Shown here piece after piece: positions 25,314 to 64,000 of a stretch of 64,000 bases of DNA (the stretch's first letter is position 1; every line of letters begins with the position of its first letter). Source of the stretch: Selaginella moellendorffii. Lineage: Eukaryota; Plantae; Lycopodiophyta. The notes below the pieces were generated by a model, which was not told where the DNA came from, made no database searches, and worked only from the letters and a program-made list of their open reading frames with translations. The stretch covers positions 825,374-889,373 of the forward strand of contig NW_003314282.1 in NCBI RefSeq assembly GCF_000143415.4, written 5' to 3'. The translations under genes and the position numbers were made by a program.

Positions 25314-25649
25314 AGAACCAGCTGAACAGTCACAGCCGGAGCGATCGACACCCTGGAGAGAAATGCCGCACAAACCCTCAATCGAAATTCACCGCAATGC
25401 CCTTGGCGCGCCGCCTAATCACTGCGCCTCCATCGATCAATCGCGGCACCCTAAAGCCCTAGACATGCTCTTCCCTCCAAAATACAAAATATAAACCCTA
25501 GCTTATTTGGCACGTGTACATGCTCTCGCATATTATAAGTATATCCTTTTTCGCATATACCCTGGTATCTCACACATCTTGACATTGAAGATATTCATCC
25601 AAATAGAAAATTTCAAGGATTTCTAAGTTTCAGTGGAAGTATGTATGGG

Positions 25650-28600
25650 TCAAAACTTGTTGATCTCATTCACTTCTCGTGTTCCCTTCCAGCAGTTCTT
25701 TCGAGCCTTATGTGCAGCATAGCTGTAAGAAACCGGAAATACCTTAGCAAGGATGCGAAACCAGAACAAAGATGCTTGCCTAGAGTAGAAGCTGGCGATG
25801 GCAGAGACTTCTTCATCGGCGTCAGGACGTAATTCTGGAGCAGCCTTGGAAAACAAAAGGTCGTGGTGACTCACGCCTGCGATTCCTTGGCGTTCCAGGA
25901 ACTTGATATGCTTGGCGAGTTCTTCGTCTCTGCCACAATGGTGTTACAATGCGGGGAATAAAGCTCATGCAAAAAACATACACTTCGAACTGACTGGCGT
26001 GCTCTTCATACAGCTGCTGCTGCGTAGGAGAAATGTCGAAGCCAGTCTTCGGAACAGTCAATAATTCTCGGAAGTCCTGCGAGCGCAAAAAAATGTGAGT
26101 GATCGGTCCAATGATACAATTCCTGCTGGGAAAAGTACCGGAATTGTTCTGCACGCTCGGTAGCAATTTTCATGAGGCCTCCTTTGAAAACCTGAAAACA
26201 GATGGGAGGAATAGAAAACATTGTACAGTTTGGCTCACCTGCCTCCTGTAAACCTTCTCCTCCATTGTGCCGGATGTTATCAGGCGGTAAACTATGATGT
26301 CCCGACGTTGCCCAATGCGATATGCTCGATCTACACTTTGGTTGTCCTTGCTACAAAATATACTTGTTCAGAATCACAAAAAGAGAAAAGGAAAGAAAAC
26401 CCAACGTGAAAAAACTTAAAAAGTGAACCCAAACCTGGGATTCCAAACCGGATCTACAATGACAACTCTATCTGCAACTGTCAACGTGAGTCCCAATCCT
26501 CCAACTTGTGATGTCAACAAAAATATGGAAACTCTACAGCCATCACTCTGGAAATCCTGCAATAGAATAAGTCAGTCAAGCTAAATCCATCCGTGGCTTA
26601 CCTCAACGATTCTCTGACGCTCAGAAACTTTTGTTTTGCCGTCTATACGACAAAAGCTACCTCCGTTTTGTTATCTCTTCCTGAAAGAAACAACATCAGA
26701 TAAGGCAGTCAAAATATGTGACGCACCTGGATAATGTCAAGCATCTTAAGAGCCTGAGCGAAGACCAATGTTCTATGGCCCTCCTGCACAAGATTTTCCT
26801 TCAACAAAAATAAAAAATTTATAAGTTGTATAACTTCAGCACCAACTTACCAGAAGAGCCATAAGAAATACGACCTTGCACGAGTGTTTATTTCCATCAC
26901 TGTCCGGCTCAGATTCTGCTGAACCAGGAGGAAGTGGCCGCAGTGTCGGTACTATCTAAATACCCGACCACATCGTCGATCTCCTGCTTTATCAAAAGCC
27001 AAGGGTGGTCACAAATTCTTTTAAGAATCTGTAATTCGGACATGCTCATTAAGAACATCTTGAATAAGATTTCAAATACCGTCAATGCTAATAAGACGTC
27101 TGAACCTGCCAGGAATTCGTGGGCTGTTTCACTTCTCAAAAGCGCCATATACATCTGACGCTGAGAAAATCACGAGATAGTAGACAGAAAAAATACAACA
27201 TCTTACGTACCTGTCGTTGAGACAATCGCAGCCATACAATTATGTCATTCTTCTTTGCAAGCTGCTGTGTGCCTTGACCCATACTCGGAAAAACATCCTT
27301 CTTCAGGCGACGCAAAAAGTACAGAGCAATTTTGTCTTGAAGCTTCTGCAAAACCAGCTCAAAAACAGGATAACTTGATTATTGTCATACCTGCGCAACT
27401 CTTTTGAATGTAATTTGCATCCTTATTATTACCACTCAAAATCGCAGCTTCGTATTCCCACTTGAATCTGCAAGTTAAGCATAAGAGCCAGCGAAGGCAC
27501 ATTAAAAAACGCACTCTTTTCGGTCGCCTAGAAGTTCAGGGTAGCAAAAGTGGAAAAGGGCCCACATTTCCTGGAAAGAGGTGTTTAGTCGAAAAAATTT
27601 ATCAGAGGACTTCCGTATCAATCTCACTCGCAAATTGTTCTGTATGGGAGTGCCACTTAAAATGATTCTATGAGCGCTCGGAATTTCCTTTAAACTTTCT
27701 GCACGTTGAGTTGAGGGATCTTTTATCAGGTGGCCCTGCACGTTTCACGTGAATGAGAAGCACGGCAAAGAAAAATCGTCTCACCTCGTCAAGAATGACG
27801 TAGTCCCATGTCACTTGATCACCATCAAACCTACCTTTCAAAGCATTGGTATTGTGGGGAACAATATCATATGTGGTAAGCAGCACTCCTCCGGCCTGTT
27901 GCAATGGCAACAATGATATGCACGGATGTAGATATCAGAGTGAGTATACCTGCAATATATGATGCAAGTTCGATTTCCGGACGTTTACAGACAACGTCGA
28001 GTAGCTGTAAGACAAAAGAAAGGAGTAGCATATGTCACTTGAATGATACTCCGTTCGCTTACTCTTCAACTTTCCTTCCAAGTCGCACCACATTGAGCTC
28101 CTTGCTCCAGTTAGGTATTAATGTCTTCGGCACCACAATGAGCGCCCTCTTAATAAGCTGAGAGTGAAACAGACCACAAAGAAATGCAGCAATCTGAGAA
28201 AGGATAGATTAGAACTGCAGAAGCATAAAAAAGAAAAGGTTTTTACCTGCATTGTTTTGCCAAGGCCCATGTCGTCTCCCAGAATTCCTCCTCGACGCTG
28301 AAGATGCAATCTCCACAGCCAACGTAGACCTTCATGTTGATGCTCATAGAGGACAGAAGCAACATTCCCGGGGAGGATGAATTTCCACCTTCCTTCACCA
28401 AGTACTAGATCGGACGCGGACTTGTTGGATGATCCATAACCTGCGGTATTGGCGGCGAAAGTATCTCTAGACACTTGCTGCTTCATCGTCAGCGACACGG
28501 AACCAAGTTTTTCGCACAGAAGATAGCCAACACCGTCGAAACGTTCGTTGGAAACGCTTGGCAGCTCTACCAGTTGAGCAGGACCAAGTTCCGAGGCCAT

Positions 28601-29074
28601 TCGAAGAGGTGAATCATCCCTGGCAGTACAAACTACAGAAAAAAAACAGGAAGAAAAAAAAAAACATATGAGCTTCCAGCTTTCAACGAAGACAAAACTA
28701 AAATGTACCTGAGGAAGCGGTTTCCCCCCTGACAGTGGGAGCTGCATTGATAGAAATCATGTCAGCCTTCTACAAAGAATGAAAATGAAGCTTACCTGAC
28801 GACTCATCCCAAACTACACTTGAAAAGAAAGTTAAAGGCAAGTTTTGTTGTTTGTCTTTTTTTTTCTTTTTTTTTCTTTAAAAACATACGAAAAGTAGTT
28901 TTTCTTTGTATGCTGAGAGCACACTTGCTACGAAAGAAAACCAAGCCTACCTGAGGACGCGCCTTCATCCCAGTCGTCAAACAATCGTGCATCGTTCTCC
29001 CAACACATATTTCCGGCATCCTGCTCCAATGGCGCTTGCCTACCGCGAGCAGCCTGGCCTCAGCCATCATCCAT
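25650..29074 (-). pseudogene. Tandem duplicate of CHR24, pseudogenised
   Basis: Colinear exons and introns with 21440-25313. Frameshift near 26936 (stop at 26909), 2-nt deletion near 26658 creating TAG, GT-to-GA donor loss near 26121, C-terminal exons missing. Confidence 0.85.
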
Positions 29075-40031: not shown

Positions 40032-43000
40032 TTAATATAAAGCTTCTTTATATACAGTATTGATGAATGTTGATGAATTAAATGGAATTAAATGGCCTTA
40101 TGTATGATTTGTGTCAACTCAAATTGCAAGTTGTTGTGGTGATGTGCATCTTGAGAGTGCAACATAGAACTGCCCATGGGTAAAGACTGGCTGGGGTAAA
40201 TAGATGCCTACATGATCAAATGTTTAACCTTGGTATTTTGAAATTGTTAAACAGTATCCAAGACGAAAAGGAAATTGTTTTCGAGACATATGAAATGGAA
40301 CATTTGAATTAAAGGGTGTTAAGTTAATGCATGGGATAAAAGTTCTAGTACCTTTAAATTCACCTGTAATTATTTCACAGTCCAAAACTTTAGGTGAAGT
40401 TCTTTTGACCATTAATCAAGTTCCATCGCATAATCCAATTGTTGGAGATATATTTCTCAGAAAAATAATTATACAACCTTCTTTTAGTATTAATTTGTGT
40501 GGTGGTAGTCTAGAGGGAGTGATAGAGTTTAGAAATTTAATTGGGAATTCTTCAGGGTGTTCAACATCAACAGAGTCAATGCTAGTATAAATTTGAGGTG
40601 GACTTGGTAATTGAGAGATGATGTTGTTATTAATTGGAAATGTATCATCATTGAGAGGTGTTAAAATGGCTCTATTTACTACAATTTGAACATTTGAAAT
40701 ATCTTCAATACATGGGAATATAAAATCAGTAATAGAGGTACTTCTAATTAGTTCTAAAGGAAGAAGGATAGAATCAAGTGGTAAAATAGGGTTTTGTGTG
40801 TAATTATTTCCATCACCGACTTTCAATAGTCATTCTGCCCAGTTTGGGAACTTGGGGCCAAGCTGCATATTTGTTTGCAATTGAAACTTTCTAAATAGAT
40901 TCCATAGACTATTCATTTTTACAGATGTGGAAACAATCTGTGCTTAATAACTGTGTGGGACAATTATTAATGTTTGACGGAAGTCACCACTTGTAACAAT
41001 AACAATGCCACCGAATGGAGAATTATTATGTTTTAAGTCTTGTAGGCAACGGTCGACAGCTGAAAAAGCAAATGTATGAACCATACTAATTTCATCCCAA
41101 ATAAACACTTGTATTGCTTTTGTAGATCTACCAGCACTGTTATTATGTGTTAACTTAGAAACAGATGTATCATTAATTGGAACTGGTAACTTAAAAATTG
41201 TATGGGATGTTTATCCATTGTGTAGTAATGTGCTTGCAATACCTGTCCATGCCATACAAACCACTTTTTTATTGTAGAACTCAAAATATTTTACTATTGT
41301 ATTTAATAAATATGTTTTGCCAGTACCACCAGGGCCATCAATAAAAATAAAACGGTTGGTATCGGTTGGGCACTCGACAATATTAACAATTTCATTGAAT
41401 ATAGCTAATTGTTCAACATTCAAGTTTCTAATATAATGGTAAATTTCTGTATATAAATGGTTGCAATTTAGTATTGGTTGAATAGAGGTATATAGGATTG
41501 GGATAGGTAAATTGTATGGTTGATTTGTTTTACCATGTATTTTCATTCTTGAGTTAATGTCTATTAGAGCAAGTTTATATCTGTATACAATATTTGTTTT
41601 ACCAAAATCTTCAGAGAGTTGATCCTTAAAAACATCCCAAAGATATGGTGGGTTTTGTGGATTGCAAAAAATACATATGAAAGTAAAGAGTTGACGCAAT
41701 TGTGTAGGCATCTGAAAATTGCATGTTTTTTGTAAACAATTATACCACTCATTATTATCATCAACAAGACCCATAACAACAGCAGCTTATTGAAAGCTTT
41801 GGTAAGTTATATCATTAATTGTTTTAATATTGTCGAAGGATGTCGCTCCTCTTTTATGAAGAAGAATAATACGTAAGTGGTACAATTCGGTATTTAGAGG
41901 AGATACTGAGTATAGTCGAGGAATAACCTTTTTCTTTTTTTGACGTTGCCAAACATTAGCAGATTTATTGAAAACATAATGTAAAGGTATTTCAACGTAA
42001 GTATATTATCTTGCATTCAGATCATGAATATTGAGTTCAAACCATTTTGCTAGCATTGTTCCATTACATGCTGCTCTTTGCAAGGCATTGTGCTCCAAAC
42101 CTTTTGTAAAATACACATTTGGAAGTCAGGAAGATGTACGGGCAGACGTATTATAGGGTGTGAGCATCCATGCATTTTAAATTTAAATATCCTCCAAATA
42201 GCTTCTGGTGTTGAAATGTATCGGGTATTTATAAAATTCATGATTTCATCCCAGTTTAATATGTTTGCAAATTGAGTAGCTGTTTGGATTTGAATGGTTG
42301 CACAATCATATCCTTTATAAACATATTGAAAAAGATACTTAATACTTTTAATTGATGCACATATTTCTATATTTATATGGGTTTTGTATTTTTTACATAA
42401 ATATTTATTATGGTACAATCCATCTATTATCAATTGGAACATCATTTTTAAGGAAGGTGCAATCATTGTTTGGCCTAAAATATTCTGGGTACCTATCCAC
42501 ACAATATGTAGTTCCGTCATTGAAGTTTTTGGGATAGTTTTTGGAGCATTTTTTGTTTTCCATACATGGACTTTGAGGATTTAGTAATCCACATGGACCA
42601 TGTATCATATGTGATGTGATTATTTCAAATAGTTTGGGCTCTGATAAAGGGTCAGGTAATTGAGCAGATACATATTGGTCAATAGTGTCACGGTCTTTAA
42701 TTTTACTTTCATTATCTAATATGCCTAGGAAATGACAATGTGGCAAACCTCTTTTTTGGAACTCAATGACATATATAAATGCAATATTCCAAAGATATTA
42801 TTTTGTGTAATATCATGGAGAAAATATTTTAGCTTCATGTTAAAAACCCTAGCAACTAAATCAGGTCGGTCTTCAAGTCCTTCATTAGGGTGCAGATTTT
42901 GTAATATCTCAAGCCATTTAGGGTTGCAAGTGAAAGTTATAAAAATATCAGGTTTTGAGTGTTTTGATAGCATCTTGGTAATTTTGTTGCATAGCTCTTG

Positions 43001-44313
43001 GGTTTCTTGTAAAAGTAGAAGGTAAAATAACAATTTTTCCTTGTTGAGCATTTGCATTAGCAATTTTGCCAGCAACATAATCCATCAAACCTGTATAAAA
43101 ATCAACTCTTATATTTTTTTGATTAGATCTATAGTATTGTAAATTGTTGCTTTCAATTTTAACATAGGCATCTACAATATATTGTTGGGTGAGTTTTCCA
43201 GCATGTAAAATTTGGTCATATGTAACTGTAGAGGTTGATAATGTTGAATCTCTTTTGGACAAATGATAGGCATAATATTGAAGGAGTGTTACATGCTTGT
43301 TAGAAGAAAGCTTGTCATGCTAGGCTCTATCTTCATGTGGAAAAAGCAATGGATAAACCATAGGATCACAATTACCATTTAAAATAGATATATGTTGTGG
43401 TTCTGATGATTTTGGATGAATGCATATTTCACAGTCAAAAGGTGGCACACCATCTTCACTTTGGAAAACTATTGCAACATCATTAGTTTGTGGAGTATTA
43501 TATCGACGATGGTCTGTGCCTTCATTTTTAATAAGCATATAAACTCCATGTAAATTGCTACCAGAAATAATAGTTCTTGAAAGATTTTCCCGTTCCAATT
43601 CATACATCATTCTAAAAGCTTGTGCATATAGATTAATATATCGAAGTATCATATCTAGTTGAAGTAGTAAATTATAATCACAATTAATGTTAAAAGGGTT
43701 TTGTTTTCTGATATCAGTAGCCTCATTGGAGTCTAGTATTTACAATTGACTATAGCTTGGATTTTGATGTATTGAAGGATGTTGTGGCATAGATTTGTCC
43801 ATGAATTCTATAGTAGTATGGACCATGACCTGTAAAAGTATTAATGCTAGCTCCCATAAACGCAAAAGCAAGTGCACTATTATATTGTCTTATATTACTC
43901 TTGAAATTAGAGTGTTTGTGTGAGTTATATATAGAATACAGAAAAGGTGGTAATGGAAGTATTAGAGGCAGGTAGACCTGTCCACTCTGACAACAAATAG
44001 ACTTCTTCTCATCAGCAAAGTGTGAGGTATGACAATACTTACAAATATATGATAAGGGACCTATATTCAATGTCAAAACAGATGTATCATTATATAGGTA
44101 ATTGCTAGCAAATGTGCTGCGAATCTGAGGTGAAGGGCAAATAGGAATTGGAAATTGACTGCTGTTCAGTGTGATTATTAAGATTTTTTTGATGTCGATA
44201 CTCTGTATCCTCTTGAATATTACTGTTGTAAAAGCTATATGTATGCTGGTGCTGGTTAGTGTCTTCAACATTATCATTGTACGTGGAATGTGTATGTCTG
44301 TGTCGAATAGCAT
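40032..44313 (-). pseudogene. Helitron Rep/Pif1-helicase (RepHel), fragmented
   Basis: CC.SGQV, NIRQYNSALAF, DPMVYPLLFP, PDIFITFTCNPKW, PHCH (HUH), MIHGPCG, KYLFQYVYKG, GPGGTGKTYL, RKQFPFRLGYCLTISK; split by stops and frameshifts. Confidence 0.93.
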
Positions 44314-50215: not shown

Positions 50216-50509
50216 ATTCTCAAACACGTGGTTAAAGAAATAACCCCTTTACAGTTACCCCCTATCGGACAGCTGTGATTGGCTAGATCTGGCGGCCCAC
50301 AAAGTTCGGCATTTGCTCCTTATCTACTATAGTAGTAGATGTTCCTGTTGCTTATTTTAACTTCTAAGTAAATAACCACAAAAACATAAACTATTTATTT
50401 TAAGAGAAATTTTATTTTATTTTAACAAGTCCAAAATAGTAATCTGTTGCCTAGTGTGTTCCACTGCTATTAATATAGATTAGCTGTAAGTTTAAATCTA
50501 AAAATCATA

Positions 50510-51382
50510 ATGATTTATAGCTATATTACAGTATATGTTTTATTTTTGCTGATAATATTTAGTCATAACAGCTTAGCAGCTCTTATTGTAAGAGATAATC
50601 GTAGTGATCTCTCATTATCTACAAAACTATTAATTTTAAGAGCAATAAGAGAGGCTATAGATCAAATAGATGTTAATGTTCCATTTTACACTGGATATAC
50701 AAGATATTATCAGAATTATGGAATTAGGATATTATTATCTAGTATGAATTCGGAAATATCTCCTCCTAACTATCAACTTCTTTGTAGTTTATTTCCAAAT
50801 TACACTACTCCATGGGAAGGTTTGACATTAAGAGCTGAATTTCAAAGAATTTATAATAATTACATCCGTATTGATGATGACATAATTCACTATGGGATTA
50901 CAGAATATATTTTAGGGACACTAAGTATTGAATATGTAGTTGAAAATACTTATATTCTAAGTATACAAAAGATAAACTATTTAAGTTATTTAAATCAGCA
51001 TCAAGATTGTATGTGGAGGCGTACATGTATTAAAAGTACATCTAATTTTTCAAACTTCTCTAATTTATTAAGTGGAGAATTTCTGCAATCTTTAAATAAA
51101 AAATACTCATTACATGTTCAACTAAATTGTAATGTTATATTATATAAAGAAACTATTACCATATGGCAGACTAATACAGAAAATAAAGGAACTAATTGTT
51201 ATTTAACAATGCAAGTTGATGGTAATCTAGTATTATATGATGAATTTCATAATGTTATATGGTCATATAATATTTATTGGAAAAATATTTGGAAACCAAT
51301 GGCACTATGCGTTGAAGATACTGGTCATATAAGTGTTTCTAATATTGTTGAGCAAACTTCAATCTGGAGGGTTCCAAAATAA
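50510..51382 (+). CDS. Secreted protein: signal peptide, unknown ~150-aa domain, C-terminal bulb-type (GNA) lectin domain
   Basis: 290-aa intronless ORF with a hydrophobic N-terminus; LLSGEFL, QLNCNVILY, IWQTNT, LTMQVDGNLVLYD..VIWS. Confidence 0.72.
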   Translation: MIYSYITVYVLFLLIIFSHNSLAALIVRDNRSDLSLSTKLLILRAIREAIDQIDVNVPFYTGYTRYYQNYGIRILLSSMNSEISPPNYQLLCSLFPNYTTPWEGLTLRAEFQRIYNNYIRIDDDIIHYGITEYILGTLSIEYVVENTYILSIQKINYLSYLNQHQDCMWRRTCIKSTSNFSNFSNLLSGEFLQSLNKKYSLHVQLNCNVILYKETITIWQTNTENKGTNCYLTMQVDGNLVLYDEFHNVIWSYNIYWKNIWKPMALCVEDTGHISVSNIVEQTSIWRVPK

Positions 51383-52027
51383 TTAGAAAAACTTCACATG
51401 CTTCTAGGTTTCACTAAATAATACTAATATTTATATTTAATAATATATTGAATATTTATCAATTAACAATGAATAGTTACTAAAATATTTTATAATACAA
51501 GAAGGCTAAACATATAGTATAAATATTATGACTGAAAATTTTATTGATGGTAATACTGATTAAATATTCTATCATAAAATTGTAAACATGAAATTATTAC
51601 TTAACAAATAGTTTTAATAATTACTTTGCTCTGTCTTGCACTTTAAAAATTACTTTGCTCTCTCTTGCACTGGCTTGGCAAGAACCCGTGCGTATTGAGA
51701 CTAGTCTTTCAATATCACTAGATGATAGCTTACTGTGTCTACCAAACACCCTCACTATCACACCCTTTGTATTAGTCTCATTTCGGTGTCAAATGTATGA
51801 GACACAAATCCCTAAGCCCCAAAGTGGAGCCGAAAGGGTGCCACATGGTAGTGGCCGAAGCAAAAGCCAAACGAGCGTAACATGTTTGGACTAAAAGGCT
51901 CCGACTTGAAAGGTTGACAGCGGGAGTGGAACTCCCAACGCAGTGCTCAAGGAACAAGCATGAAGCAAGCAATAAACGAGGCTCCAAAAAGGGACCCAAA
52001 AGGACCAACATATGACACATGGAATTG

Positions 52028-52510
52028 TCCGAGATGGAGTCCGAGATGGACCCGAGTTGGAGTCTGAGGTGGAGTCCGAGATGGAGTCCGAGATGGACCC
52101 GAGTTGGAGACCGAGATGGACCAAGACGGAGTCCGAGATGGAGTCTGAGATGGAGTCCAAGATGGAGTCCGAGATGGACCGAGATGGAGTCCGAGATGGA
52201 CCGAGATGGAGTCCAAGATGGAGTCCGAGATGGAGTCCGAGGTAGACCGAGACGGAGTTCGAGATGGAGTTCGAGATGGAGTCCGAGATGGAATCCGAGA
52301 TGGAGTCTGAGAAGGACCCGAGATGGAGTTTGAGGTCGAGACCGAGACCAGGACCGAGACTGAGACCAAGACCGAGACCGAGACCAAGACCAAGACCAAG
52401 ACCGAGCCCGAGCCCGAGTCCGAGTTTGAGCCCGAGCCCAAGTCCGAGTCCGAGTCCGAGTCCGAGTCCGAGTCCGAGTCCGAGTTCGAGTCCGAGTTCG
52501 AGTCTGAGAG
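52028..52510. repeat. Hexamer/dodecamer tandem array (GAGATG/GAGTCC/GAGACC)n
   Basis: Visible array; source of the spurious low-complexity ORFs. Confidence 0.95.
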
Positions 52511-52559
52511 GGTGAAAGCCCAAAGCATTCGTCTCCCAGACCCTGGGGGGTTTGGTGAG

Positions 52560-54700
52560 CTCCAAAAGTATAGTAAGGGGGAGGACTGCAGTGGAGCCAG
52601 TTTAGCCAGGAAAGGCCAATTTGGCCAGGAAAGGCCAGTTTGGCCCAGGAAGCCAGACCCAGTGTTGGGTGATGAACTGACCACTAGGAAGTCCAAGACT
52701 AGAGTGAATACAGACCGACAAGCGGGGTAGCTTACTGAAGTGTTCAAGAGCCGGCTCTAATTCCCCCGGGAGATCGTCTGGCCGATGCTCCCAATCCAAA
52801 TGTGATACTTGGATACCTAGCATGGCTCAATGGAACCTTGCTCTAAGCCCATGGCTAGAGCACTTAAAGGCGAAAGGCAGGGAGAGTACCCATGAGGCCT
52901 GCGGTGTTCCGAAATGTTGTCCCAAAGTCCCAAACTATGGAAAGGAAGAGGAGTAGCCCTTTGGTGTGGTGACCAAAGACACAATCACACAGGAAGGAAG
53001 TCCTAGAGGACAGTGGGACTTAGTGGTCGGGCCCGTGGGCCTTGATCTAATGGCAGTGTTGGCGAACTCAGCCAAGGAAAGAAAGGGACTTGGTGGGGAC
53101 TGGAACGAAGATATTGGGGAAGGCTATTCCCCATGTCTGCGGGCATCCTAAGGATGCTAAGGAGTGGATCTAGGATGACCACTCATGGACGAATGGCCCA
53201 ATCCTAGAGAGACGGGATTGCAATGCAGGTGGTGTTAGACCACCGATGTGACCAAGGTGAATGGGCATGGCCTGGTGTAACAGGCAGATATGTTAGTGGT
53301 ACCTTGGGTGTCGGTCATGGGATCGGACATGTGGAGCACTAGGACCAAGTGCAAAGGTTGAGTGGCGGGGATGCCATTCTCGGGGCTAACAAGCCCAAGT
53401 TTGGAATAGGACTTATGGAGGTTGTGAGTGAGACTCCTCCAAGTGGTCGAAGGTGTGGCTAAGTGACTAAAGTAGAATGGAAAAATTTAGTCGATTACAA
53501 CTTAGTATCGAAATTGTTCTTTAGTCTGACTTTTATTGGTGCTCAAGTATATCACCACTAGCGTTGGCATTGGAAGATCCGAGGAGTGGGCCTATCCTCG
53601 AGGAGTAGTAGGTCAGGAAGATATGGCTCTCCATTATAGTTCATGTGTGAACTTGTAGACGAGGTGGTGGATAGAAAAGGGCCAATAATGAAACGACTTT
53701 GGGATCTTGGGAACAGTGCAAGGTTTTCCTCATTGAGTTGAGGATGTGATCCAAATGAGCGTTTGACTCAGCAAACTGGCTAATGTAGTTGTGGTAAACA
53801 ACTATAATTGGGATCACAGGGAAGATATAGAGTCCAAAATGATAAAGGAGTCACAAGGTTACCCTCATGAAGTTGAGGTTGGTGCTCATGAATGGGAGAC
53901 CAAAAGTAATGACCGCAGGAGGTCAAATACGGAAAAGGACACAAGTCCTTAAAATGGTAGCCAGAGCTACCTCTAATAAATGCTGGAACAACCCAAGGAG
54001 TTAAGGGTGTATTTAGAGGATGAGTTGGTATTCTCATCACATGGACAAATGGTTCTAAGGGGCGAAAGGTTGCCCCTAGAGAACAAATCAAGTGTCGGAG
54101 TAACACTTGCAAAACATGGTCCTTGTGAGTAGGACATGAATACAAGGAGTTGTATTCTAGTGAGGTAGCATCTGAAAAGTAGGACCTTATAAGTCGTCGG
54201 ATTAACAAAGTCTAAAAGGTTGAATAACTCCAATAGAGTCAAGGAATAATCCTAAGGGCTTGAGGAAAGCATTTGGATTGAAGTGTGTGGTGCCCTACAA
54301 AGGATGGGGAGGATTTTGAGATTTAAGCATGAGAGCAGTATGTATCTCATTGATGGCAGAAGGTGCCATGCTAAAGTCGTGGGAAAAAGTTTCCCGGAAG
54401 AAAACAACTTTAACACAAAGTTATGCATAAACTCTATGGTGCAGTGCTAATGGATAATTGGCATAAGAGACAACCATATTGGTCCTGGCAAAAATACCTG
54501 GACACAAGTAAGAAGGGTCATAAAGGTAGGCTTGTGGAGCCGATGGTGTGGAGACACCAAAGGTGCCAAGGCGTGCTGCCTTGAGGTCAAGTTGGCAGGT
54601 TCATGAGAACCCCTTCCAAAGGAATCCCAATAGAAATGAAAATAGCATAGCCTAAGCTGGAAAGCATGCAGTTAGAGTGTGGTGACCCAGCTAATGATGG
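52560..54700 (+). mobile_element. Highly degenerate gypsy-like retroelement remnant
   Basis: RT-like traces near 53830-54150 (SK....QGY.HEV..., LEDELVFS where YLDDILIFS is expected); no LTRs resolved. Confidence 0.4.
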
Positions 54701-55415
54701 AGGTGTGGAAGCACCAACAATGGGTTGTAGAACTTGACAACTATGAAACAACTAAATGCTCTATTTCGTTAAAGTGGGATTTATTCAGTAAAATGGGACT
54801 AGGTACAAATTTTCAAGTATTTGAAAATGACGTGAAATTATATGTTTTTTGTCCAGGGGCTAGACATATCTGGGGCATGGTGACTAGCGCGGTGACTTTA
54901 TGTCCAGACTGAGTCCATCTGGTTGTATAATAAATCTCATTGTCAAGGTGAACAAGCCGAATCTGAAGCTAAAGAAGAGCGATGGCATGCGCGCACACAC
55001 TATTTGTTTGTTCATTGAGCGTGTGGTGAGCTTTCCAAGATGAACGTCATTCCTATTAGCCAGACATATAACTTAATAGTGAGAACATTTAGATATTATT
55101 CAATGTTATCTTTTTCTAACGAATCTAATTGTGAAGGTGTAGCAAGAGGCATTGCTAGTCTGGAGAAGTCATTTAACTCATTTGACCCTTAGTGTATTTT
55201 AATGAAACTAAATAACATTCATATTATTAAGGAATTTCTCTAGTACCTTTTTTTTACGACATAGAGGCTTGCATTTCTTTCAAAGGTGATTTAGTAAAAG
55301 GCCTGAGGGCACATGCCATTCTATTTCTCAGACCGATATTAAGATATACTAGTGCAAAGGGAAAAAGGTATTTGGTGATCAAGTAAATGGCATGAGGGCA
55401 CACGCCATTATAAGC

Positions 55416-55673
55416 CTAAGCGCTAGTGGACACCTCCTTTTTGGTACTCTCAGCGGTACTATCATCCTTCTCCGGGTCAGTTGTTTTGCTTTGGATTGTT
55501 GTTTCTGACGTTACTGGGGCATTCTCGATAGTTGTTAATGTTGCCGTTTGTTCAGAAAAATGATCACCTGGAGTATAGTACGGGGAGTTTGGAAGACTTA
55601 TATATTCTACATCTTCACCTATCTCCTTCTCCGTCTCCTTTTCTGCCTCACTTACAGATTTTGTGCTTGCCAT
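55416..55673 (-). CDS. Small acidic Ser/Thr/Glu-rich ORF (85 aa) inside the transposon-like unit
   Basis: MASTKSVSEAEKETEKEIGEDVEYISLPNSPYYTP...; open frame in a stop-rich context; no recognisable homology. Confidence 0.35.
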   Translation of the reverse strand: MASTKSVSEAEKETEKEIGEDVEYISLPNSPYYTPGDHFSEQTATLTTIENAPVTSETTIQSKTTDPEKDDSTAESTKKEVSTSA

Positions 55674-56342
55674 GAGAACACTCTTCACCCTAAAATATGG
55701 AGTTCGTTGTGTTATAAAAGGAAACCAACACACTCGCTGCAAGGGAATGATGGTACATAAAGCACGTAAGCCCACAATATGGGTTTATGTGCCATTAATA
55801 TGGGCCACACGCCATATTATTAGATTTATGCACGTGTGATTGGTAAATGCATATGTCACATCATCTTTGTTTTACCTCACACACTATATCAGGCCTAATG
55901 AACCATATCACATGTGCACACATGCTATATATATGGAGAAGTATTATGCAAGGATAGAAATTCAATGCATGATTGTGGAGAGCAATGGCATGAAGCCACA
56001 TGCTAAATAACATTTTAGAGAAAGAATTAAAATAAAAACATGCAAACAGTACTAAGTGGACCAAGACTTAGAAGTGCACAATTGAATGAGGTATTTCTAA
56101 TAAATACTTCACTCACCTCATATAGGAATGGCTACCACTCTCAAATGGCGTATCGCCTCATGCCATCACCTCGCAATTTGTTATAACAATCCGATGAATT
56201 CATATTCGGCTTGTTCACCTTGAACTTTAAGTAAGATTTGCTAGAACAACTAAGAATTTATACTTGTTATTTGTATCATCTCACCTAGGAATGGCGTAAG
56301 GCCACATGCCATCACGCCTCCTCTGATTCAGATTCGGATTGT

Positions 56343-59300
56343 TCACCTTGAAATAAAATACATTAGAAACTTAGTAAAGGAATATTCATGAATCTCACCT
56401 TGAACCCGGGTTATGAATGCTCTTGCTGCATCTCTTGCATGGTCTGGCAAGGTGATGGTGGCACTCTGCTTCCACATCCAACCATGCACAACATTATCCA
56501 CCGATATGCTCATGCTGGGATCCCTTGGATTCAGCACCCATCTCTTTTCTAGGCAATCGTTCGTATATCCGGAACTTGGCTTGAACCACTCCACAGTTAC
56601 ATTGAAGGAGTTAGTTTCCGCGTCCTCCTCTGCATCAGTGATGCAGTGCCCCACCCATATCATTTGTTTTTTATTACTGGGTCTGACAAGCACGACCATT
56701 CCTTTGCAGACCTGTACTGGATTGAATGCTGAATCCGGCTTCTTGTTCCTCGGCCCACAATAGTGATCCTCAACATCGTTATCTGTCACTGCATTTCCAG
56801 AGGACATTGTTCCGCTACTATCTGGTGCTCTGGGTTCTAGCCAAAAGGACTCTTCCAATTCTTCATATACAACCGGCCCATTTTGGATAGCAGATATAAT
56901 CTTCTCCCAGTATTCGAGCAAAGGCTTGCACCTCTGAAAATAGGATTCTCCACCAAACACCAACCCCCTCTTCCAGAAGGCAATATGCTGTCTAATCCCG
57001 GCCACTATACTTTCCTGGTCTTTGAGTCCATCCGGGTGCATCGGCCGTGGGGAACCCTGAGGAATCATAGGTTCCCCAGTTATGGGATCTCTCTTGAAGA
57101 GTTCAATGCCGTCCACTGGCAGCCACACTGTGTCCCATTCTCTCATCTTGTACCTCATCACTGGAGCACCGTCACACATGCTGAAATGAAACTGAAGAGG
57201 CTTGGAGTGGCCAATCAGCGTTTCGGATCCGTCCCTGATGTAGCCTCTTACAAACCCCTTAAAGTCTGGAACCTCTGTCAGAAGTGCAGCTTCAACAGTG
57301 CCTTTGATGCAATTTTGGAATTCATCGTAGAGTTGTGGGAGGGTGAGGACATTGGATCGCCGGAGGGACTCTGCCAGGTGACTGAACATGGCATCGACGT
57401 CTTCATGAGTGTGCCCAACCATGAGAAAGCCAAGTGTAACCGTTTCAAATATGCCTTTGGCAACAAGCATCGCCAAGTACGCGAAGACGTACATGTTTTT
57501 GTTCTCACTGCCAGCATTGTTTGTTTGGAGCAGAAGATGGGGTGGAAGGCCACATCGGCCGCAAGAACTTCCTTGAGATTCTGCTTCGTTTGGATGAGGC
57601 TGTGCATTCACCGGGCGACCAGCCTCGTCGGAATGGCATGAGGCCTCACGTGATAACCCTACAATCTGACGGCCAACATATTCACTGGGATGGCATGGGG
57701 CCCCACGCGATACTGCAAGCCTTTGCTCCTCCTCCAGCTGAACCCTGTATGGGGTTCGATCGACAAGGGCCTTATGCAAGGGTTGGCCGTTCAGCTCAGT
57801 CTGCGCACTTTGCAGAGACCTTAAGTGTTTTGCTAGGGACGCAATCATCATGTTTGCACCCCCGCCACCCCATAGAGGTACAAAGAAGTTCCCATAGTTC
57901 TGGGCACCATGCCCATGAGCGATTATGCCAAACAGAGACACAGGCAGCTGCATGGATGAAGAGATTGCCTTGGGGGCAGGATTGAGTCGAGGTAAGCACG
58001 TCTTTTTCTGGTCCATTTTGTCGTGGATGATGCAGAGGTAAGAGTCAGGTCTCTCCATGGAGAGAATCCTGTTATGATAATATGCAGTCCTGCAGCTTCT
58101 CTGCTCGATGTTGTGGTCGAGCCGCCTTCTAACCAACGTCTCTCGCTCTTGAGCGCTGCAAGAATTCTTCGACAAAGCCATTTTGATAGCAGTGCACTCG
58201 TCACACTTTGAAAAGCTGGAGTACTTTCCTATACTCACATCCCTGAACCTGTTGCTCCACAATCTACTAAATCTAGATTGGCTCAGCTTCCTGTAGCCAT
58301 TACTCTGGAGTTCCCGATTCACATCTTCCAATATGGCCCCCTTGGTATACATGGAAGGGAGAACTCGTTGGGTGTCTCGTGTTCCATCTTCCAAGAGGCG
58401 GGTTTTATGTGGTTGCTGCTCGCTACATGTCTCGACAAACCTCTTGAAGATTGCCTCTCCATATACAACATGACCCCTGGTTTTGTGCGTACCGTCGTTC
58501 CCATGGACTGCCTGTTGAACCTTTTGTTCCTCGAACTCAGTTTTGATTCTGTAGAATGTGGTTCGAGGGACTCCATAAATGATTCTCCATGCCTTCATGC
58601 AGACCAAACCCCTCTGGAAGACCATGCCCCCCACCTGATGTTCTGAAGCATCAACAAATGACCGTAATGCCTCATACACAAAATTGCAAGCTGCCTTCCA
58701 GGACAATGTTTTGTATCTTGCTCTCTCCTCTTCAATAGCATCCCAATCAGCATGTTGACAGCACCTCCTCTTGCAACAAGCAACTGTCGAGACCATTCGA
58801 ACCTCCATCGCCATTTTCTGCCTTTTCGGTTCGTTGCTCAGATCCCTTTGGCTGCGCTTTAGGAAGGTGTACTTTCTTTTCCCATGAAGAGATGTTCTGT
58901 CATCAGTTGTAGTGGTGTCTGATTGTGAATCCTTCACATTCTCAAACACTAAGTGCCTCAATTTCCACCGCACAATGCTTCCAATAGTCAGACTGTTTTC
59001 TTCTGTGTCAACAACCTCTAAAATCGCAACTCCAATATCATCCCAGCCCAATTCTTGATTAGCAACCGCATCTCTTGGATCGACAACTGTGGCTAAGCCC
59101 TCAGCTACCACCTCCCCCTCGGGGTTGTTTAGAAACACCTTCGCCTGAATCCATGTAGCACGGTTCTTAAGATCCACGGAGGGAACATGCGTCGCACTTG
59201 CGCTGTCCCCAACATCTGCTTTCTTCTGAAGATTTTTCAAGGCAACAACAACATTTACCCCGACGACCATCTCTCCTCGTTCAATAGCGACCACATTCCT

Positions 59301-59453
59301 ATCGAAGACAGTCTCTATTGATACAGCAGCATTGCCTTCCCCAAGCCTTTGACAGTGTATAACAAAGTTCCGATCCATAGACACAAGGGTCCTTTTTGCA
59401 ACTCTCTTCCCACCATTCAAAATGTAAACCTTTTCCCCAACCCTGAAGGCCAT
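56343..59453 (-). CDS. Transposase-like protein (RNase H/DDE-like core, two N-terminal SH3/Tnp1-like repeats, C-terminal Tudor/BAH-like module)
   Basis: 1036-aa ORF; CCKRRC, VCMKAWRIIYG, FSKCDEC, IIHDKMDQKKT, LQTNNAGSENKN, FLMVGHTHEDVDAMFS; C-terminal LVRP..IWVG..VTVEWF. Confidence 0.8.
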   Translation of the reverse strand: MAFRVGEKVYILNGGKRVAKRTLVSMDRNFVIHCQRLGEGNAAVSIETVFDRNVVAIERGEMVVGVNVVVALKNLQKKADVGDSASATHVPSVDLKNRATWIQAKVFLNNPEGEVVAEGLATVVDPRDAVANQELGWDDIGVAILEVVDTEENSLTIGSIVRWKLRHLVFENVKDSQSDTTTTDDRTSLHGKRKYTFLKRSQRDLSNEPKRQKMAMEVRMVSTVACCKRRCCQHADWDAIEEERARYKTLSWKAACNFVYEALRSFVDASEHQVGGMVFQRGLVCMKAWRIIYGVPRTTFYRIKTEFEEQKVQQAVHGNDGTHKTRGHVVYGEAIFKRFVETCSEQQPHKTRLLEDGTRDTQRVLPSMYTKGAILEDVNRELQSNGYRKLSQSRFSRLWSNRFRDVSIGKYSSFSKCDECTAIKMALSKNSCSAQERETLVRRRLDHNIEQRSCRTAYYHNRILSMERPDSYLCIIHDKMDQKKTCLPRLNPAPKAISSSMQLPVSLFGIIAHGHGAQNYGNFFVPLWGGGGANMMIASLAKHLRSLQSAQTELNGQPLHKALVDRTPYRVQLEEEQRLAVSRGAPCHPSEYVGRQIVGLSREASCHSDEAGRPVNAQPHPNEAESQGSSCGRCGLPPHLLLQTNNAGSENKNMYVFAYLAMLVAKGIFETVTLGFLMVGHTHEDVDAMFSHLAESLRRSNVLTLPQLYDEFQNCIKGTVEAALLTEVPDFKGFVRGYIRDGSETLIGHSKPLQFHFSMCDGAPVMRYKMREWDTVWLPVDGIELFKRDPITGEPMIPQGSPRPMHPDGLKDQESIVAGIRQHIAFWKRGLVFGGESYFQRCKPLLEYWEKIISAIQNGPVVYEELEESFWLEPRAPDSSGTMSSGNAVTDNDVEDHYCGPRNKKPDSAFNPVQVCKGMVVLVRPSNKKQMIWVGHCITDAEEDAETNSFNVTVEWFKPSSGYTNDCLEKRWVLNPRDPSMSISVDNVVHGWMWKQSATITLPDHARDAARAFITRVQGEIHEYSFTKFLMYFISR

Positions 59454-60750
59454 TCTGAAAGTGCAGAAAAGAAATTAAGACCATACAAAAAATGATTGGA
59501 GAATGGCCTAAATCATAACATACCAAACAACCTCAATAGCATGAGGCCACATGCCATTATTCAAACATGCTATTGACACCCACGTGAAATTTCGCATTCA
59601 CAAAATTGGCATGAGCCCTCATGCCATCTTGATATACACACAGCTGCAGGCAAGTAAAAACATACATGACAATACGCTAGCCATGAAATTGCAAGGGCCC
59701 AAGATGGCATGTGGCCTCATGCCATTTCTAAATGTGGTCCTAAGCCATTCCATGGTGAACATACCAGGAAGCACAAGTGCCGAATATCAAGAGGAAGCGG
59801 TAGCCACACCAAAGACAGTGCCGCTCGCAACACCGCAACTAGAGGCGGTAGTTCTACAGCAACACCGCAACTGCTCGTAGCGCCGCTCGCACAAACTGCC
59901 ACTCGCATAAACTGCCGCTCGCAATGGCGCTCGCAATGCCGCAACCGCTCATAGACGCATAAACCACAGCCCACAACGCCGCTTACACAAGCAGCGCTCA
60001 CTGCGCTCAGCGGAACCAAGAACACGGCACACAAAAATGATAGACCTAGGAATGAGTTCGAGAATTCAAAAATAACACACGCTTGAACGTCACATCAAAT
60101 CCTCTGACAAACCAGATCTTATGACTCCTCTGACAAATTTCAAACTGAGTAGCTTCTAGACTTTGCTGTCGGAGGTTGAACTTTGTCACATCATGTCCTT
60201 GCCTCGATCCAGCTGTGCCATGTCAGTGATTCGAACTTTGCCATGCCATGTCAGCGATCCGCGCCAAGATTATTCGCCGTGTAAAGGAATAATTATGCTG
60301 TGTGTGTACGTCCATTTATGGCAATATAAGGCCACACGCCATTCAAAGAATAATGCTAGTCGAGCATTTTTTGGTGCATTTTTGGGTTCAAAATTGCATG
60401 AGCCCACACGCTATAAAGTTTACCTGTACCAAAAATAGAAACAGCTTTATTTACTTGGGAATTTAAGTGGTTGAGGCATTTTTAAACTTACAAACACATG
60501 CCCTACTTACATTCCTTTGGTTGCTTAAAATTCAAAAATATTATAAACCTTTCTTTTTGCATTTTCAATGTTTTCAATTATGGTTTTTGATTTTCGTAGG
60601 ACCAGCCTAGTAATCTATTTGCATCCCGTCATGTTTATAGCTAACTTTCGTTTGTCCCCTTCGCTAGCCTGAGATACATCTGCTCGGCATCTGCCTCTTA
60701 CAGCATTTGCCCAGAAAGGGCATCTTTCTTCACGCAGCATTTGCCACATG

Positions 60751-60783
60751 TTTAGGGTTTAGGGTTTAGGGTTTAGGGTTTAG
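60751..60783 (+). repeat. Interstitial plant telomeric repeat (TTTAGGG)4 + TTTAG
   Basis: Directly visible. Confidence 0.95.
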
Positions 60784-62380
60784 CAATTCAGTAGCTTGAT
60801 AAACATGCAAATACAGAACTTGATGCAAAATCCTTTGATATGTCACAATGCCCCTAGGACCATAAACACATTTCAATAGAGAGGGTCCTTTCATTTCATA
60901 ACTCCTTACGTAGATCTTGGTGAAACCAGAGTTAGTGAAGTTAGTTTCTTGTGATCCCGCATCTGATTGTGATGTCCCTTTGCAGTTTCGATGGAAAGGT
61001 CAATGCACACCAAACTGTAAAATCTTGGAGCAAAATAACGGTCGGATCTATGGCAAATGCCCCTGAAACATTATAAGGCTCGTGTGGTCTCATGTGGTGT
61101 CCGATCGAGATGCTTCTTTGCAGGGTCATCAAGAAAGACATTGTATACCATTCTGTAAAATCTAGTTGCGATCTAACAGTTGGATCTCCAGAAAACTCAA
61201 AAAAATCTCGCGCGTGTCAGAATATTCTAGGAATATACTCCTATGTGCCCCTGAAAATGGCATGCAGCCCCACGCCATTCAAGAGATAACACCAGATGAC
61301 GCCGAGAATTTTTTGGTGCATTTTTTGGGTTCAAAATTGCATGAGCCCACACGCTATAAAGTTTATTTTTGCCAAATAGAGAAAAGTTTATCTGTGTCAT
61401 GTGAGGTAGTTACAGTCCTTTGTGCTCGGCATCTACCTCTTGCAGCATTTGCACTGAAAGGGAATTTTTCTCCATTCAGCATTTGGCCCTGAAAATGGCA
61501 TGCGCCCACACGCCATTCAAGGAATAACGCCACAGGACGCCTGGATTTTTGGGTTTAAAATGTTTAGGGTTTTTTGGGTTTTTTCAAAATATTTTGGGTC
61601 CAACGTTTTTTGGGTTTCTTTGGTTCAAAATTGCATGAGCCCACACGCTATAATATTGATTTGAGAGAAAAATAGAAACAAATAGAATTTCTTTATTTAG
61701 CTGAACATCTGCCATTTTTGGAAATACAAGATGCTTTGGAATATCCAATCATGCATGGTATAAATATAGCGAGGTTATTAAATGATATCCCAATCATGAT
61801 CTTTCTTTTGGATTTCGCGTGCATGCAGTCCGAGGAATGATGACGTTGCGGATTTCTTTTGGATTTTGCGTGCTTGCATGCGCGCAGCAATCCAGAAATT
61901 AATGGTGGCGCCCAAGTCCGAGGAATGATGACGTGGCGGGATTACCAACCGTTGTGACATTTCGCGCGTGTGAGGTTAGGTTTTGCATTTTGCTTTGTAC
62001 TCGCGCTCGCACACTCGCGCTCGCGCTCGCATCACACTCGCGCTCCCGCTCGCATCGCGCTCCCACTCGCGATCACGCTCACTTCTCTACAGGTTTCTCG
62101 TGTGCATCGGCGTCCACTCGCGCTTGCATCACACTCGCGCTCGCATCGCGCTCGTGTGCATCGGCGTCCACTTCAAGACACACCCAGTTTGTAACTTCGC
62201 CACCAACTCCGCCGCCCACTCCGCCACCCACACGCAGCCCACTTGGCGTCCCGGGAGATTTCAACACCACTCTCCAACTGTAAGTGGCAGAGTAGCCTTG
62301 CTGCTACGATCCGCTGCACACACAGTGCACATTCGCCAGCGAGTCCGGCCTCGATTGTCACGGCCTCCATTCGGCTTCAA

Positions 62381-64000
62381 ATGGTAAGTCTTTTAGACCA
62401 AGTAGAAAATGGCATGAGGCCACATGCCATTCAGTAGCAACATTGGCATGCACCGATTGGGCTCTCGAGTGCAGTCCGGTTACAGATGGCGTGTAGCCTC
62501 ACGCCATCTTAGGATGCAGCCTCAAGACATCTGATGCAGTGGTGAATGGCGTGTGGCCTCACGTTATTTCCAGCTGCTAGCTTTTCATCTGTCAGCTCTA
62601 ATTGTTGTGCATTTCTAAACAGGCGAGGAATTGCGTTCTTCTTCCAGCCACTGTCAATGTGGATGCAGAGAAGGGGGAGGAGCTCACCAGTTGGACTTTC
62701 GGGATGGAAGGCGAGGATCTGATGCTGTACAACACAGATGGTGGGAGAAAAGAATGCATGGGGATCCTCATCCAAGTGACAGACACTCCATGCAGTTCCA
62801 TGCAAGAATATGGACTGGCACTTGTGGTAGAGACAGCGTCCGCCTTCAAGATCCACCTTGCACATCCTAGCGGCTTCCCGGAGGGGGGCAGCGGCTATGA
62901 GGAATTCCTAGAGGGAGCTAGGGAGAGGTTGTCCAGGAGGCCCACAATTTCAAAGACGCTGCGGGTCTATGAAGATCACATGGAATCCACGGACCTCACC
63001 TACGGCGATGTTCAAAAACTATATTCCAACATTGAGCCGTTGAGAGTGCCTCCAGTTTGTGAAGCGAAGGGGAAGGGGGTCGATCTAGAAAATACCCCGA
63101 AGCAGAAAAGGGTGGTCAAGCTCAAGCCGATGTCCGACTCTGCTGCTCCAAAAAAGAAGCTACTCGGTGATGCCATTGCCTCGGGTTCGAACACTACACC
63201 CACCAAAAAGAAGAGCCGCAAAGAGCAGAAAGAGCAAGAAGAGGCAGCAAAAATCGTCGCAAATAATAGTACTTGTTACTATTCCAACAAAGTATATACA
63301 ATTGACGTGAGCCGTATCGAGATCCAAAGCAAATACAACCACAGGCTAGTATCTGATGAGTGGGTGGAGAAACTGGAGCAGAAGATGCTGGCAAGTCCAG
63401 TAACACCCGACATCGCAGACGTGATCCCCTACTACCGAACAATGAAGGGCGAGACGAGGTTTCCAGACTTGATCAATAGGAAGGTGTTGGACGATCAGAA
63501 CATCCGGTTCTATGCCGTCTCCGGGCAGCATTCTAGCTTGGCGATGCAACAGATAGTTGTGGATATTATGGTGGGCGAGGAGGTGAAGAAAGTCTTCAAG
63601 ACAAGAGTTGTCCGCCTGATAAAAGGCAACTCGCCCCTCCGATCTATCATATACATCTCCCACGCGCAGAATGTCAAGCAAGAAACGTGCTACAAATCGG
63701 GTCTGCACGAGACATTGGCACGAACACGGAAGCTCTGGGTTCAACTGAAGAAGCCACAAAAACCAGGACAAGGACGTGCACTAGCAACTAGCGCCTGGCA
63801 GGTAAGCCTCGTTGCATGTGGCATAGCATGTGGCCTCACGCCATTTCCATTGCAGGAATTCTCGAGTCTTCTCTCGAAAACACTGGGGGTCAATGACACA
63901 CTCAGCATCCATAACATTCTACTCGCGACAAAAGTTGTTTTTGACAAATGGGTAGATGTGCTGAGGAGGTACCATGACGGGGAGTTGCTAAACTCAATGG
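62381..64000 (+). CDS. ParB/Srx-like domain protein, 3'-incomplete (exons 62381-62383, 62623-63801, 63856 to >64000)
   Basis: ATG|GTAAGT micro-exon; frame open from 62623 to the window end (hence absent from the ORF track); Lys-rich NLS-like linker; IDVSRI..YNHR..DEWVEKLEQKM...FYAVSGQHSSLAM...ISHAQNVKQE. Confidence 0.75.

Follow-up and report, generated by a model that had tools for sequence, protein, structure and literature searches.

A family-specific 22-bp palindrome dispersed through a Sola1-like transposon of Selaginella moellendorffii, and an element-encoded ParB-fold protein as its candidate reader

The 64,000-nucleotide stretch of Selaginella moellendorffii DNA analysed here in full (hereafter "the window"; contig NW_003314282.1 of assembly GCF_000143415.4, positions 825,374 to 889,373, forward strand) ends within a Sola1-like transposon that encodes a transposase and, divergently, an accessory protein with a predicted ParB-like fold. 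The results indicate that this transposon carries a palindrome, ATGGCRTG-N6-CAYGCCAT, for which the 64-kb window contains 20 matches at no more than two mismatches, all within positions 54982-63844, compared to a mean of 0.06 matches and a maximum of 1 in 100 shuffled windows; the remaining 54.9 kb of the window contain no copy at the same threshold. The palindrome is restricted to the element, specific to its family, and kept out of coding DNA. Our preferred reading, to which we assign a probability of roughly 55%, is that the palindromes would be family-specific sites bound by a dimeric form of the element-encoded, ParB-fold accessory protein, and would mark the element as self.

The arms ATGGCRTG and CAYGCCAT had been described as conserved in an original prediction made from the sequence of the window alone, and the 20 copies confirm this; the prediction had the set extend over 55387..63844, of which the end is correct and the start is too late, the first copy being at 54982. 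The oriented consensus of the 20 copies is aATGGCRTGAGGCCACAYGCCAT: that is, the central six bases are also constrained (consensus AGGCCA), the preceding base is usually A, and information content is 1-2 bits per position within the palindrome vs. 0.16 in the flanks. Positions 9 and 14 read A/A in nine copies, T/T in five, and otherwise in six, so that symmetry is broken at a single position, where in 14/20 copies one half has A and the opposite half T; this gives each copy a direction, and both directions are present, even inside a single intron. The ten calls made earlier for these two positions are all correct (A/A at 55387, 55985, 56291, 59536, and 62409; T/T at 56145, 59704, 62486, 62546, and 63823). 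Spacers between copies are irregular, as had been proposed, and span 35-1824 bp, beyond the tens to hundreds of bp given at the time. The flanks, likewise described as unique, are so for 13 of 20 copies; in the other seven, which form the groups 60393/61336/61630, 61257/61495, and 54982/56291, flank similarity is above the null maximum. Because these 7 of 20 copies share flanks, the sites appear to multiply by local duplication, and this, together with the constraint on the motif columns, upholds the earlier suggestion that the motif persists through selection or copying. The claim that the palindrome is almost confined to non-coding DNA also stands: 18 of 20 copies are non-coding in an element of which 48% is coding (binomial P=4e-4), and alignment shows that both coding copies fall within a linker of the transposase that is variable in length and sequence among homologues and is flanked by conserved blocks.

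The palindrome is read as a double-stranded DNA site rather than a hairpin, since its arms do not covary. Positions 6 and 17 form A.C in 10 copies, A-T in five, G.T in two, and G-C in two, with Watson-Crick pairing in 7 of 20 and no covariation (Fisher P=0.6); strict compensatory pairing, which the original prediction had named as pointing to a hairpin, is thus absent, and the oriented, dimer-type site that it favored is supported by the sequence. The R/Y variation within the arms had been interpreted as a CpG-vs.-TpG switch that could make binding sensitive to methylation, an interpretation with which the half-sites (n=40) do not agree: the variable dinucleotide is CA in 23, CG in 15, TG in 1, and CC in 1, and position 5 of the half-site is C in 39 of 40. 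Decay of methylated CpG would yield TG as often as CA; the one-sided tolerance is therefore of the kind expected where a protein reads the site, with a single permissive base next to a C that does not vary. A base that tolerates both C and T would likely take 5-methylcytosine (5mC) too.

The accessory gene contains two introns, both with palindromes: intron 1 (62384-62622; 239 nt, GTAAGT...CAG) holds three copies and intron 2 (63802-63855; 54 nt, GTAAGC...CAG), which corresponds to an 18-residue insertion when aligned with liverwort homologues, holds one; the intron positions and the copies in each are as originally predicted. The accessory protein has 17 weak homologues with an invariant GQH block. 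Its domain has no sequence match in Pfam, PHROG, or PDB, a search for longer homologous proteins with the single sequence gave none, prokaryote genome contigs contain no relatives of the gene, and viral contigs contain neither relatives of the transposase or accessory protein nor matches to the window palindrome. Structure models place the ParB-N fold as top match in three structure searches. The AlphaFold2 model of the domain (predicted local distance difference test score, pLDDT, 82) matches Noc, ParB, sulfiredoxin, PadC, and KorB: Foldseek gives Noc at E 1.9e-4 and ParB at E 1.6e-3, and VIA, over 48,161 chains, gives PadC at Z 10.0 (root-mean-square deviation, rmsd, 2.9; 99 aligned) and KorB at Z 9.3, with top scores of Z 10.0, 9.3, 8.6, and 8.0. 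The model of a liverwort homologue matches M. xanthus ParB (Z 10.1, rmsd 2.0, 95 aligned) and aligns into the helical part with Noc 5-225 (177 residues, Z 8.5, rmsd 5.8) and over 192 residues with pNOB8 ParB (rmsd 5.1), in both cases with low-confidence helices. The models thus suggest that the accessory protein has the fold of bacterial palindrome-binding dimers. All four full-length liverwort homologues match PF01555 (N6_N4 methyltransferase) at E 0.005-0.02, below the Pfam cut-off, and three of the four match FCP1/NIF. The weak methyltransferase-like domain of these homologues appears degenerate, with DL[TV]H-like residues in place of the DPPY/SPPY motif of such methyltransferases.

The left end of the host transposon is defined by contigs from three runs, which depart from the window at 54755 with differing flanks, and by one contig that spans the insertion site without the element (an empty site in a long-terminal-repeat (LTR) retrotransposon remnant). 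One contig and one joint indicate 54758 as the first base; we favor 54755 because relatives begin AAC. The transposon extends past the window end (64000). Mismatches to the window amount to 18/3316 and 33/4875 letters in the longest contigs (99.3-99.5% alike), and the family is therefore young; the LTR remnant upstream of the transposon is far more diverged. At the palindrome copy at 59606-59627, other element copies continue differently, their continuation opening on another motif arm (contigs from two runs have loose ends at 59607 and 59627), and a divergence located exactly there suggests that recombination may occur between sites. A CACTA end at 55428 was considered and rejected, the contigs placing the true end at 54755-54758. 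A second imperfect inverted repeat (TGTCCAG/CTAGACA type) is located at 54849-54925, ~90 bp inside the left end, which is also the distance of the fixed palindrome in relatives. The central spacer (59460-62380) contains a 78-bp repeat in three copies, a short array of plant-telomere-type heptamers, and, at 59882-59942 and 62000-62243, short repeats rich in GC.

The label "Sola1-like" is assigned from features of the element. The transposase has 25 homologues that are 27-41% identical, except for one near-identical copy, and the named ones are from liverwort and sponge. Three conserved Asp blocks in 18 of the homologues (DKMDQ, LQ[LM]DN, and HEDxD) are what we take to be the three-aspartate (DDD) catalytic triad. 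Residue 646 of the window transposase (57519-57521, minus strand) is N where 18/18 homologues have D, the second of these three conserved Asp, in a 1036-aa frame that is otherwise open, and this copy may therefore itself be inactive. The N-terminal part has DUF8039/Transposase_23-like and helix-turn-helix-like regions. Exact 4-bp target-site duplications (TSDs) flank three of five independent relatives with both ends (L006, ATAT; L047, TCAT; L091, TTAG) and are absent in the other two (L030 and L088). An AWWT target preference has been given for Sola1 transposons (PMC3845634); one of these three TSDs fits it. An intron at ~57600-57714 was rejected, since homologues have a variable linker there, and a contig from a presumed RNA run that covers 57336-57965 shows no skip, although this is little evidence either way on splicing of the coding palindrome copies.

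To place the palindrome among related elements, we compared 80 loci with a related transposase, 66 after removal of 14 redundant loci. The window palindrome, at two mismatches, is absent from all 80. The best palindrome of a locus has at least four copies in 32/66 loci and at least five in 23/66, and three shuffles of each locus reached four copies once; tandem repeats score by this criterion too (two control stretches of the window gave 12 and 4), and 11 loci were inspected by eye. The family palindromes differ (ATTTGGTG-GC-CACCAAAT, AAATGCCT-N10, GGAGAATC-N12, TTGGCCAT-ATGGCCAA, and ACGGGTG-NN-CACCCGT), and the families that bear them have a terminal inverted repeat (TIR) sequence in common. 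Several families and the window site also share a GTGGCCAC-like centre. In 30 loci, this core, picked after the loci had been viewed and counted in loci that are kin, has 106 occurrences in the 241 kb that lie within the right TIR vs. 4 in the 171 kb beyond it. In two families, one with 8 and the other with 10 separate insertions, the core's C/G columns show a minority letter in 9.3% and 17.9% of their cells vs. 16.1% and 28.2% in other CHH-context columns, the cells not being independent; that is, motif columns diverge ~40% less than like neighbors, and flanks as conserved as the motif, the sign of plain segmental duplication according to the original prediction, are not what is found in these two related families.

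Remnants of the accessory gene are rare among the 80 loci, whose copies are decayed, and consist of the ParB-like start in L032 and L061, the segment after it in L061 (E 2e-4), and NIF pieces in 5/80 loci; there are no methyltransferase remnants in the 80 loci. Two or three successive FCP1/NIF-like remnants are present at L006:2457-5204 (minus strand) and L061:13573-15317 (plus strand), a pattern that suggests repeated phosphatase-like domains in the accessory gene. Two of 13 genome-collection loci, L088 and L091, are intact elements bounded by TIRs, with a divergent ParB-like gene that is likewise intact. The ParB-like exon scores 10.1 bits (L088) and 6.8 bits (L091) against the plant profile (0 and 1 of 300 shuffles as high), and hhalign gives P=2e-4. 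L088 contains 29 copies of TGTTGAAA-TTTCAACA, of which eight are within the final intron of the ParB-like gene and 21 precede the final transposase exon, and L091 contains 44 copies of GGACTCAA-NN-TTGAGTCC; in neither element is there a palindrome outside the TIRs. These palindromes form tandem-like arrays near both ends, vs. the dispersed copies of the window. The transposases of L088 and L091 seem to resemble the sponge homologue. L088, L091, and L098/L111 (G001, G002) are long, intron- and repeat-rich, eukaryote-like contigs that are catalogued as bacterial assemblies and have Helitron-like open reading frames (ORFs). A ParB-like ORF of the same family at L098:1297-1842 (minus strand) retains the Box II Arg (GGVHR) and lies near a 63-bp tandem array that has a palindrome of its own; within 10 kb of it there is no DUF7869 transposase or similar layout, and it is perhaps from another transposon type. 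L085, a GC-rich contig, has a 1249-aa DUF7869 ORF and, upstream on the same strand, an unclassified 945-aa ORF that does not match the ParB-like profile.

According to the hypothesis that the accessory protein reads the palindromes, a dimer of this protein would dock on each palindrome through the helical region that follows the ParB fold and would coat the element along introns and spacers. As with VANC, occupancy might alter the chromatin of the element or its transcription, and the element, being recognized as self, would likely be better at resisting host silencing; by analogy, the purpose is likely anti-silencing or self-modification. New sites would arise by local duplication and be retained where coding is undisturbed, and site and protein would drift jointly, giving each family its own site. 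A broader proposal, which we regard as unlikely, is that a eukaryotic parS/ParB system operates in Sola1-like transposons of hosts ranging from land plants to animal-like ones: an intron-hidden, family-specific palindrome would load a ParB-derived protein, which would carry a (pseudo-)methyltransferase and phosphatase-like cargo along the entire element and shield it from 5mC silencing, and site and reader would co-evolve in each family.

Several observations weigh against reading by the accessory protein, and some of them favor a different binder. The helical region is modelled at low confidence (pLDDT 35-85 over residues 460-630), and the methyltransferase-like part is a weak match that lies beyond the window. 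ParB-like accessory remnants are present in 2/80 loci (L032, L061), and most palindrome-bearing relatives have no detectable accessory gene, although the copies are decayed. Some of the high palindrome counts among relatives are plain tandem or other repeats, and the helical and methyltransferase-like exons of L088 and L091 are, pairwise, mostly non-significant against the liverwort proteins (z <=3.1). The main rival, which we hold to be considerably less likely than the preferred reading, is that the transposase itself binds the sites, for assembly of a transposition complex or control of the two promoters. Transposases of CACTA and hAT elements bind subterminal and internal repeats. The transposase here has its own likely DNA-binding region, namely the DUF8039/Transposase_23-like and helix-turn-helix-like regions; in 15/30 loci of plant-type relatives, one palindrome copy holds a fixed place 85-89 bp inward of the right TIR, which is what a transposase site would predict; the arrays of L088 and L091 lie near both ends; and the AtMu1 transposase is described as binding and activating its own element in Arabidopsis (10.64898/2026.08.24.746577). 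However, 12 of 20 copies, those of the central spacer and of the accessory-gene introns, are >4.7 kb away from the one end that is known (the right end being outside the window), and TIRs are similar across families despite differing palindromes. We infer that the accessory protein, rather than the transposase, is the binder.

A true parS/ParB mechanism, in which the palindrome would be the loading site of an accessory protein that then closes on a nucleotide, slides along the element, and spreads a methyltransferase-like or phosphatase module, is in our judgment quite improbable. The top structural matches are CTP clamps (Noc, ParB, KorB, and PadC), the putative equivalents of the Arg of Box I and the Asn of Box III (R, N141) seem conserved, and the related domain in L098 retains GGVHR. 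However, the GxxR position, equated with Box II from fold range and motif position, reads GQHS/T/L in all 18 plant sequences (S 16, T 1, L 1), and GNNS and GLHT in L088 and L091, a loss that also counts against our preferred reading. In the ParB-fold proteins tested, replacement of the GxxR Arg is reported to abolish nucleotide binding (PMC12704722), and, with the Box II Arg absent, a CTP sliding clamp is therefore doubtful; the fold is, moreover, also used by ATP enzymes that do not bind DNA (Srx, SerK, SbnI). It is highly improbable that the palindromes are host transcription-factor sites gathered by the element for germ-line promoter activity: eight copies do lie between two divergent start codons, but the other 54.9 kb of the window have none, the site differs per family, and 22 bp is long for a plant transcription-factor site. 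Largely refuted is a role as an RNA or single-strand DNA hairpin (a splicing, small-RNA, or primer signal), which includes the imperfect hairpin of the original prediction, or an origin as neutral debris of local duplication. Shared flanks in seven copies and strong folding as RNA of 3 of 9 tested copies (z -2.7 to -6.3) would fit such an account, but the other six fold no better than z -2.0, no 6/17 pair is more frequent than the mismatch A.C, a single intron holds copies in both orientations, Rfam contains no match for the palindrome, and 13 of 20 copies stand in flanks that are unrelated, with information content dropping abruptly at the motif boundary.

Related systems have been described. 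Sola1-1_Ec32 of Ectocarpus is described as having a gene for a ParB-like plus N4/N6 methyltransferase protein opposite the transposase, proposed to bind and modify its own element, with AAC termini and a 4-bp TSD, and is listed there without an AWWT preference (PMC12477816). By description, which is the sole basis of comparison, it resembles the present transposon in being a Sola1-type element with a ParB-like gene on the strand opposite the transposase. Its description mentions no palindromic sites, whereas here 20 are dispersed in introns and spacers; the present host is a land plant, the Box II Arg is lost, and the liverwort relatives have an apparently degenerate methyltransferase-like domain and FCP1/NIF. 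PAG3 of red-algal Plavaka elements is described as a ParB-like accessory protein encoded beside inverted-repeat arrays that are proposed to be its binding sites (10.1101/2025.02.11.637652); those elements share with ours the ParB-like protein and inverted repeats, and differ, as described, in their superfamily, their 2-oxoglutarate (2OG)-oxygenase effector, and their tandem arrays adjoining the gene, vs. single sites element-wide here. In VANDAL transposons, VANC21 is reported to bind motifs located in introns, between genes, and in the non-coding termini of the element (PMC5735166). The likeness consists in an element-encoded accessory protein, a family-specific non-coding motif, and local duplication; the differences are a Mutator-like transposase, an unrelated protein, and an 8-9 bp non-palindromic motif. 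Demethylation has been shown for VANC (PMC5735166). Because the present transposase is DUF7869 and the accessory protein has a ParB fold, the relation to VANDAL/VANC is one of analogy only. The bacterial ParB-parS, Noc-NBS, and KorB-OB systems likewise have a ParB-N fold followed by a helical region and several long palindromes across the encoding DNA; here, in contrast, there is no GxxR Arg, no ParA partner is seen, the gene is an intron-containing eukaryotic one, and the 22-bp site has one asymmetric position.

The kind of system is already known from algal transposons, for which self-binding has been proposed in print, both precedents being without a test. The literature searched (Repbase not included) describes no sites of this kind in Sola elements of land plants or animals, no land-plant or animal-like example of the gene type, and no dispersed intronic sites, site consensus, lost Box II Arg, or NIF fusion for this gene type; the land-plant example, the dispersed intronic sites, and the defined site-protein pair appear, on that search, to be new. 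With a defined 22-bp site, 20 natural variants, and a candidate reader together, the self-binding idea is directly testable. If it is true, the system would be a second, independent solution, from a bacterial partition fold, to the problem that VANC solves, it would operate in non-seed plants and apparently animals too, and it would be a source of long-site, family-specific DNA-binding proteins.

Table 1. Coordinates of the transposon, its genes, and the palindrome copies in the window.
Feature	Position	Strand	Remarks
Transposon left end	54755..54800	+	First base 54755 or 54758; inside older LTR-retrotransposon remnant
Transposase, Sola1-like DDD, ~1036 aa, DUF7869	56343..59453	-	Pfam PF25273, E 1.2e-40
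Accessory gene	62381..64000	+	ATG 62381-62383; exon 62623-63801; exon from 63856 past window end
Predicted ParB/Srx-fold domain of accessory gene	63250..63801	+	SGQHS replaces GxxR
Six palindrome copies 3' of transposase	54982, 55298, 55387, 55985, 56145, 56291 (54982..56312)		Motif search
Weaker palindrome copy 3' of transposase	55907		
Only two coding palindrome copies	57633, 57690 (57633..57711)		Transposase residues 582-608
Eight palindrome copies between divergent genes	59536, 59606, 59704, 60393, 61257, 61336, 61495, 61630 (59536..61651)		
Gapped palindrome copy in central spacer	near 60318		
Three palindrome copies in accessory-gene intron 1	62409, 62486, 62546 (62409..62567)		
One palindrome copy in accessory-gene intron 2	63823..63844		Occupies most of the 54-nt intron

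Other features of the window lie outside the transposon. The decayed LTR-retrotransposon-like remnant into which the transposon is inserted occupies 51700-54754 and includes a 12-bp plus 6-bp tandem array (52027-52508). At 50474-51379 (plus strand) is an AT-rich, intronless 302-aa ORF unlike its surroundings, the end of which is a putative bulb-type lectin-like segment. Broken frames at 40419-44313 (minus strand) are presumably Helitron-like Rep/helicase frames. The window appears gene-dense, with PPR-DYW genes and short introns, as would fit a non-seed land plant, and an SNF2-type helicase gene is present in tandem duplication at 21677-28756 (period ~4.1 kb, 84-97% alike).

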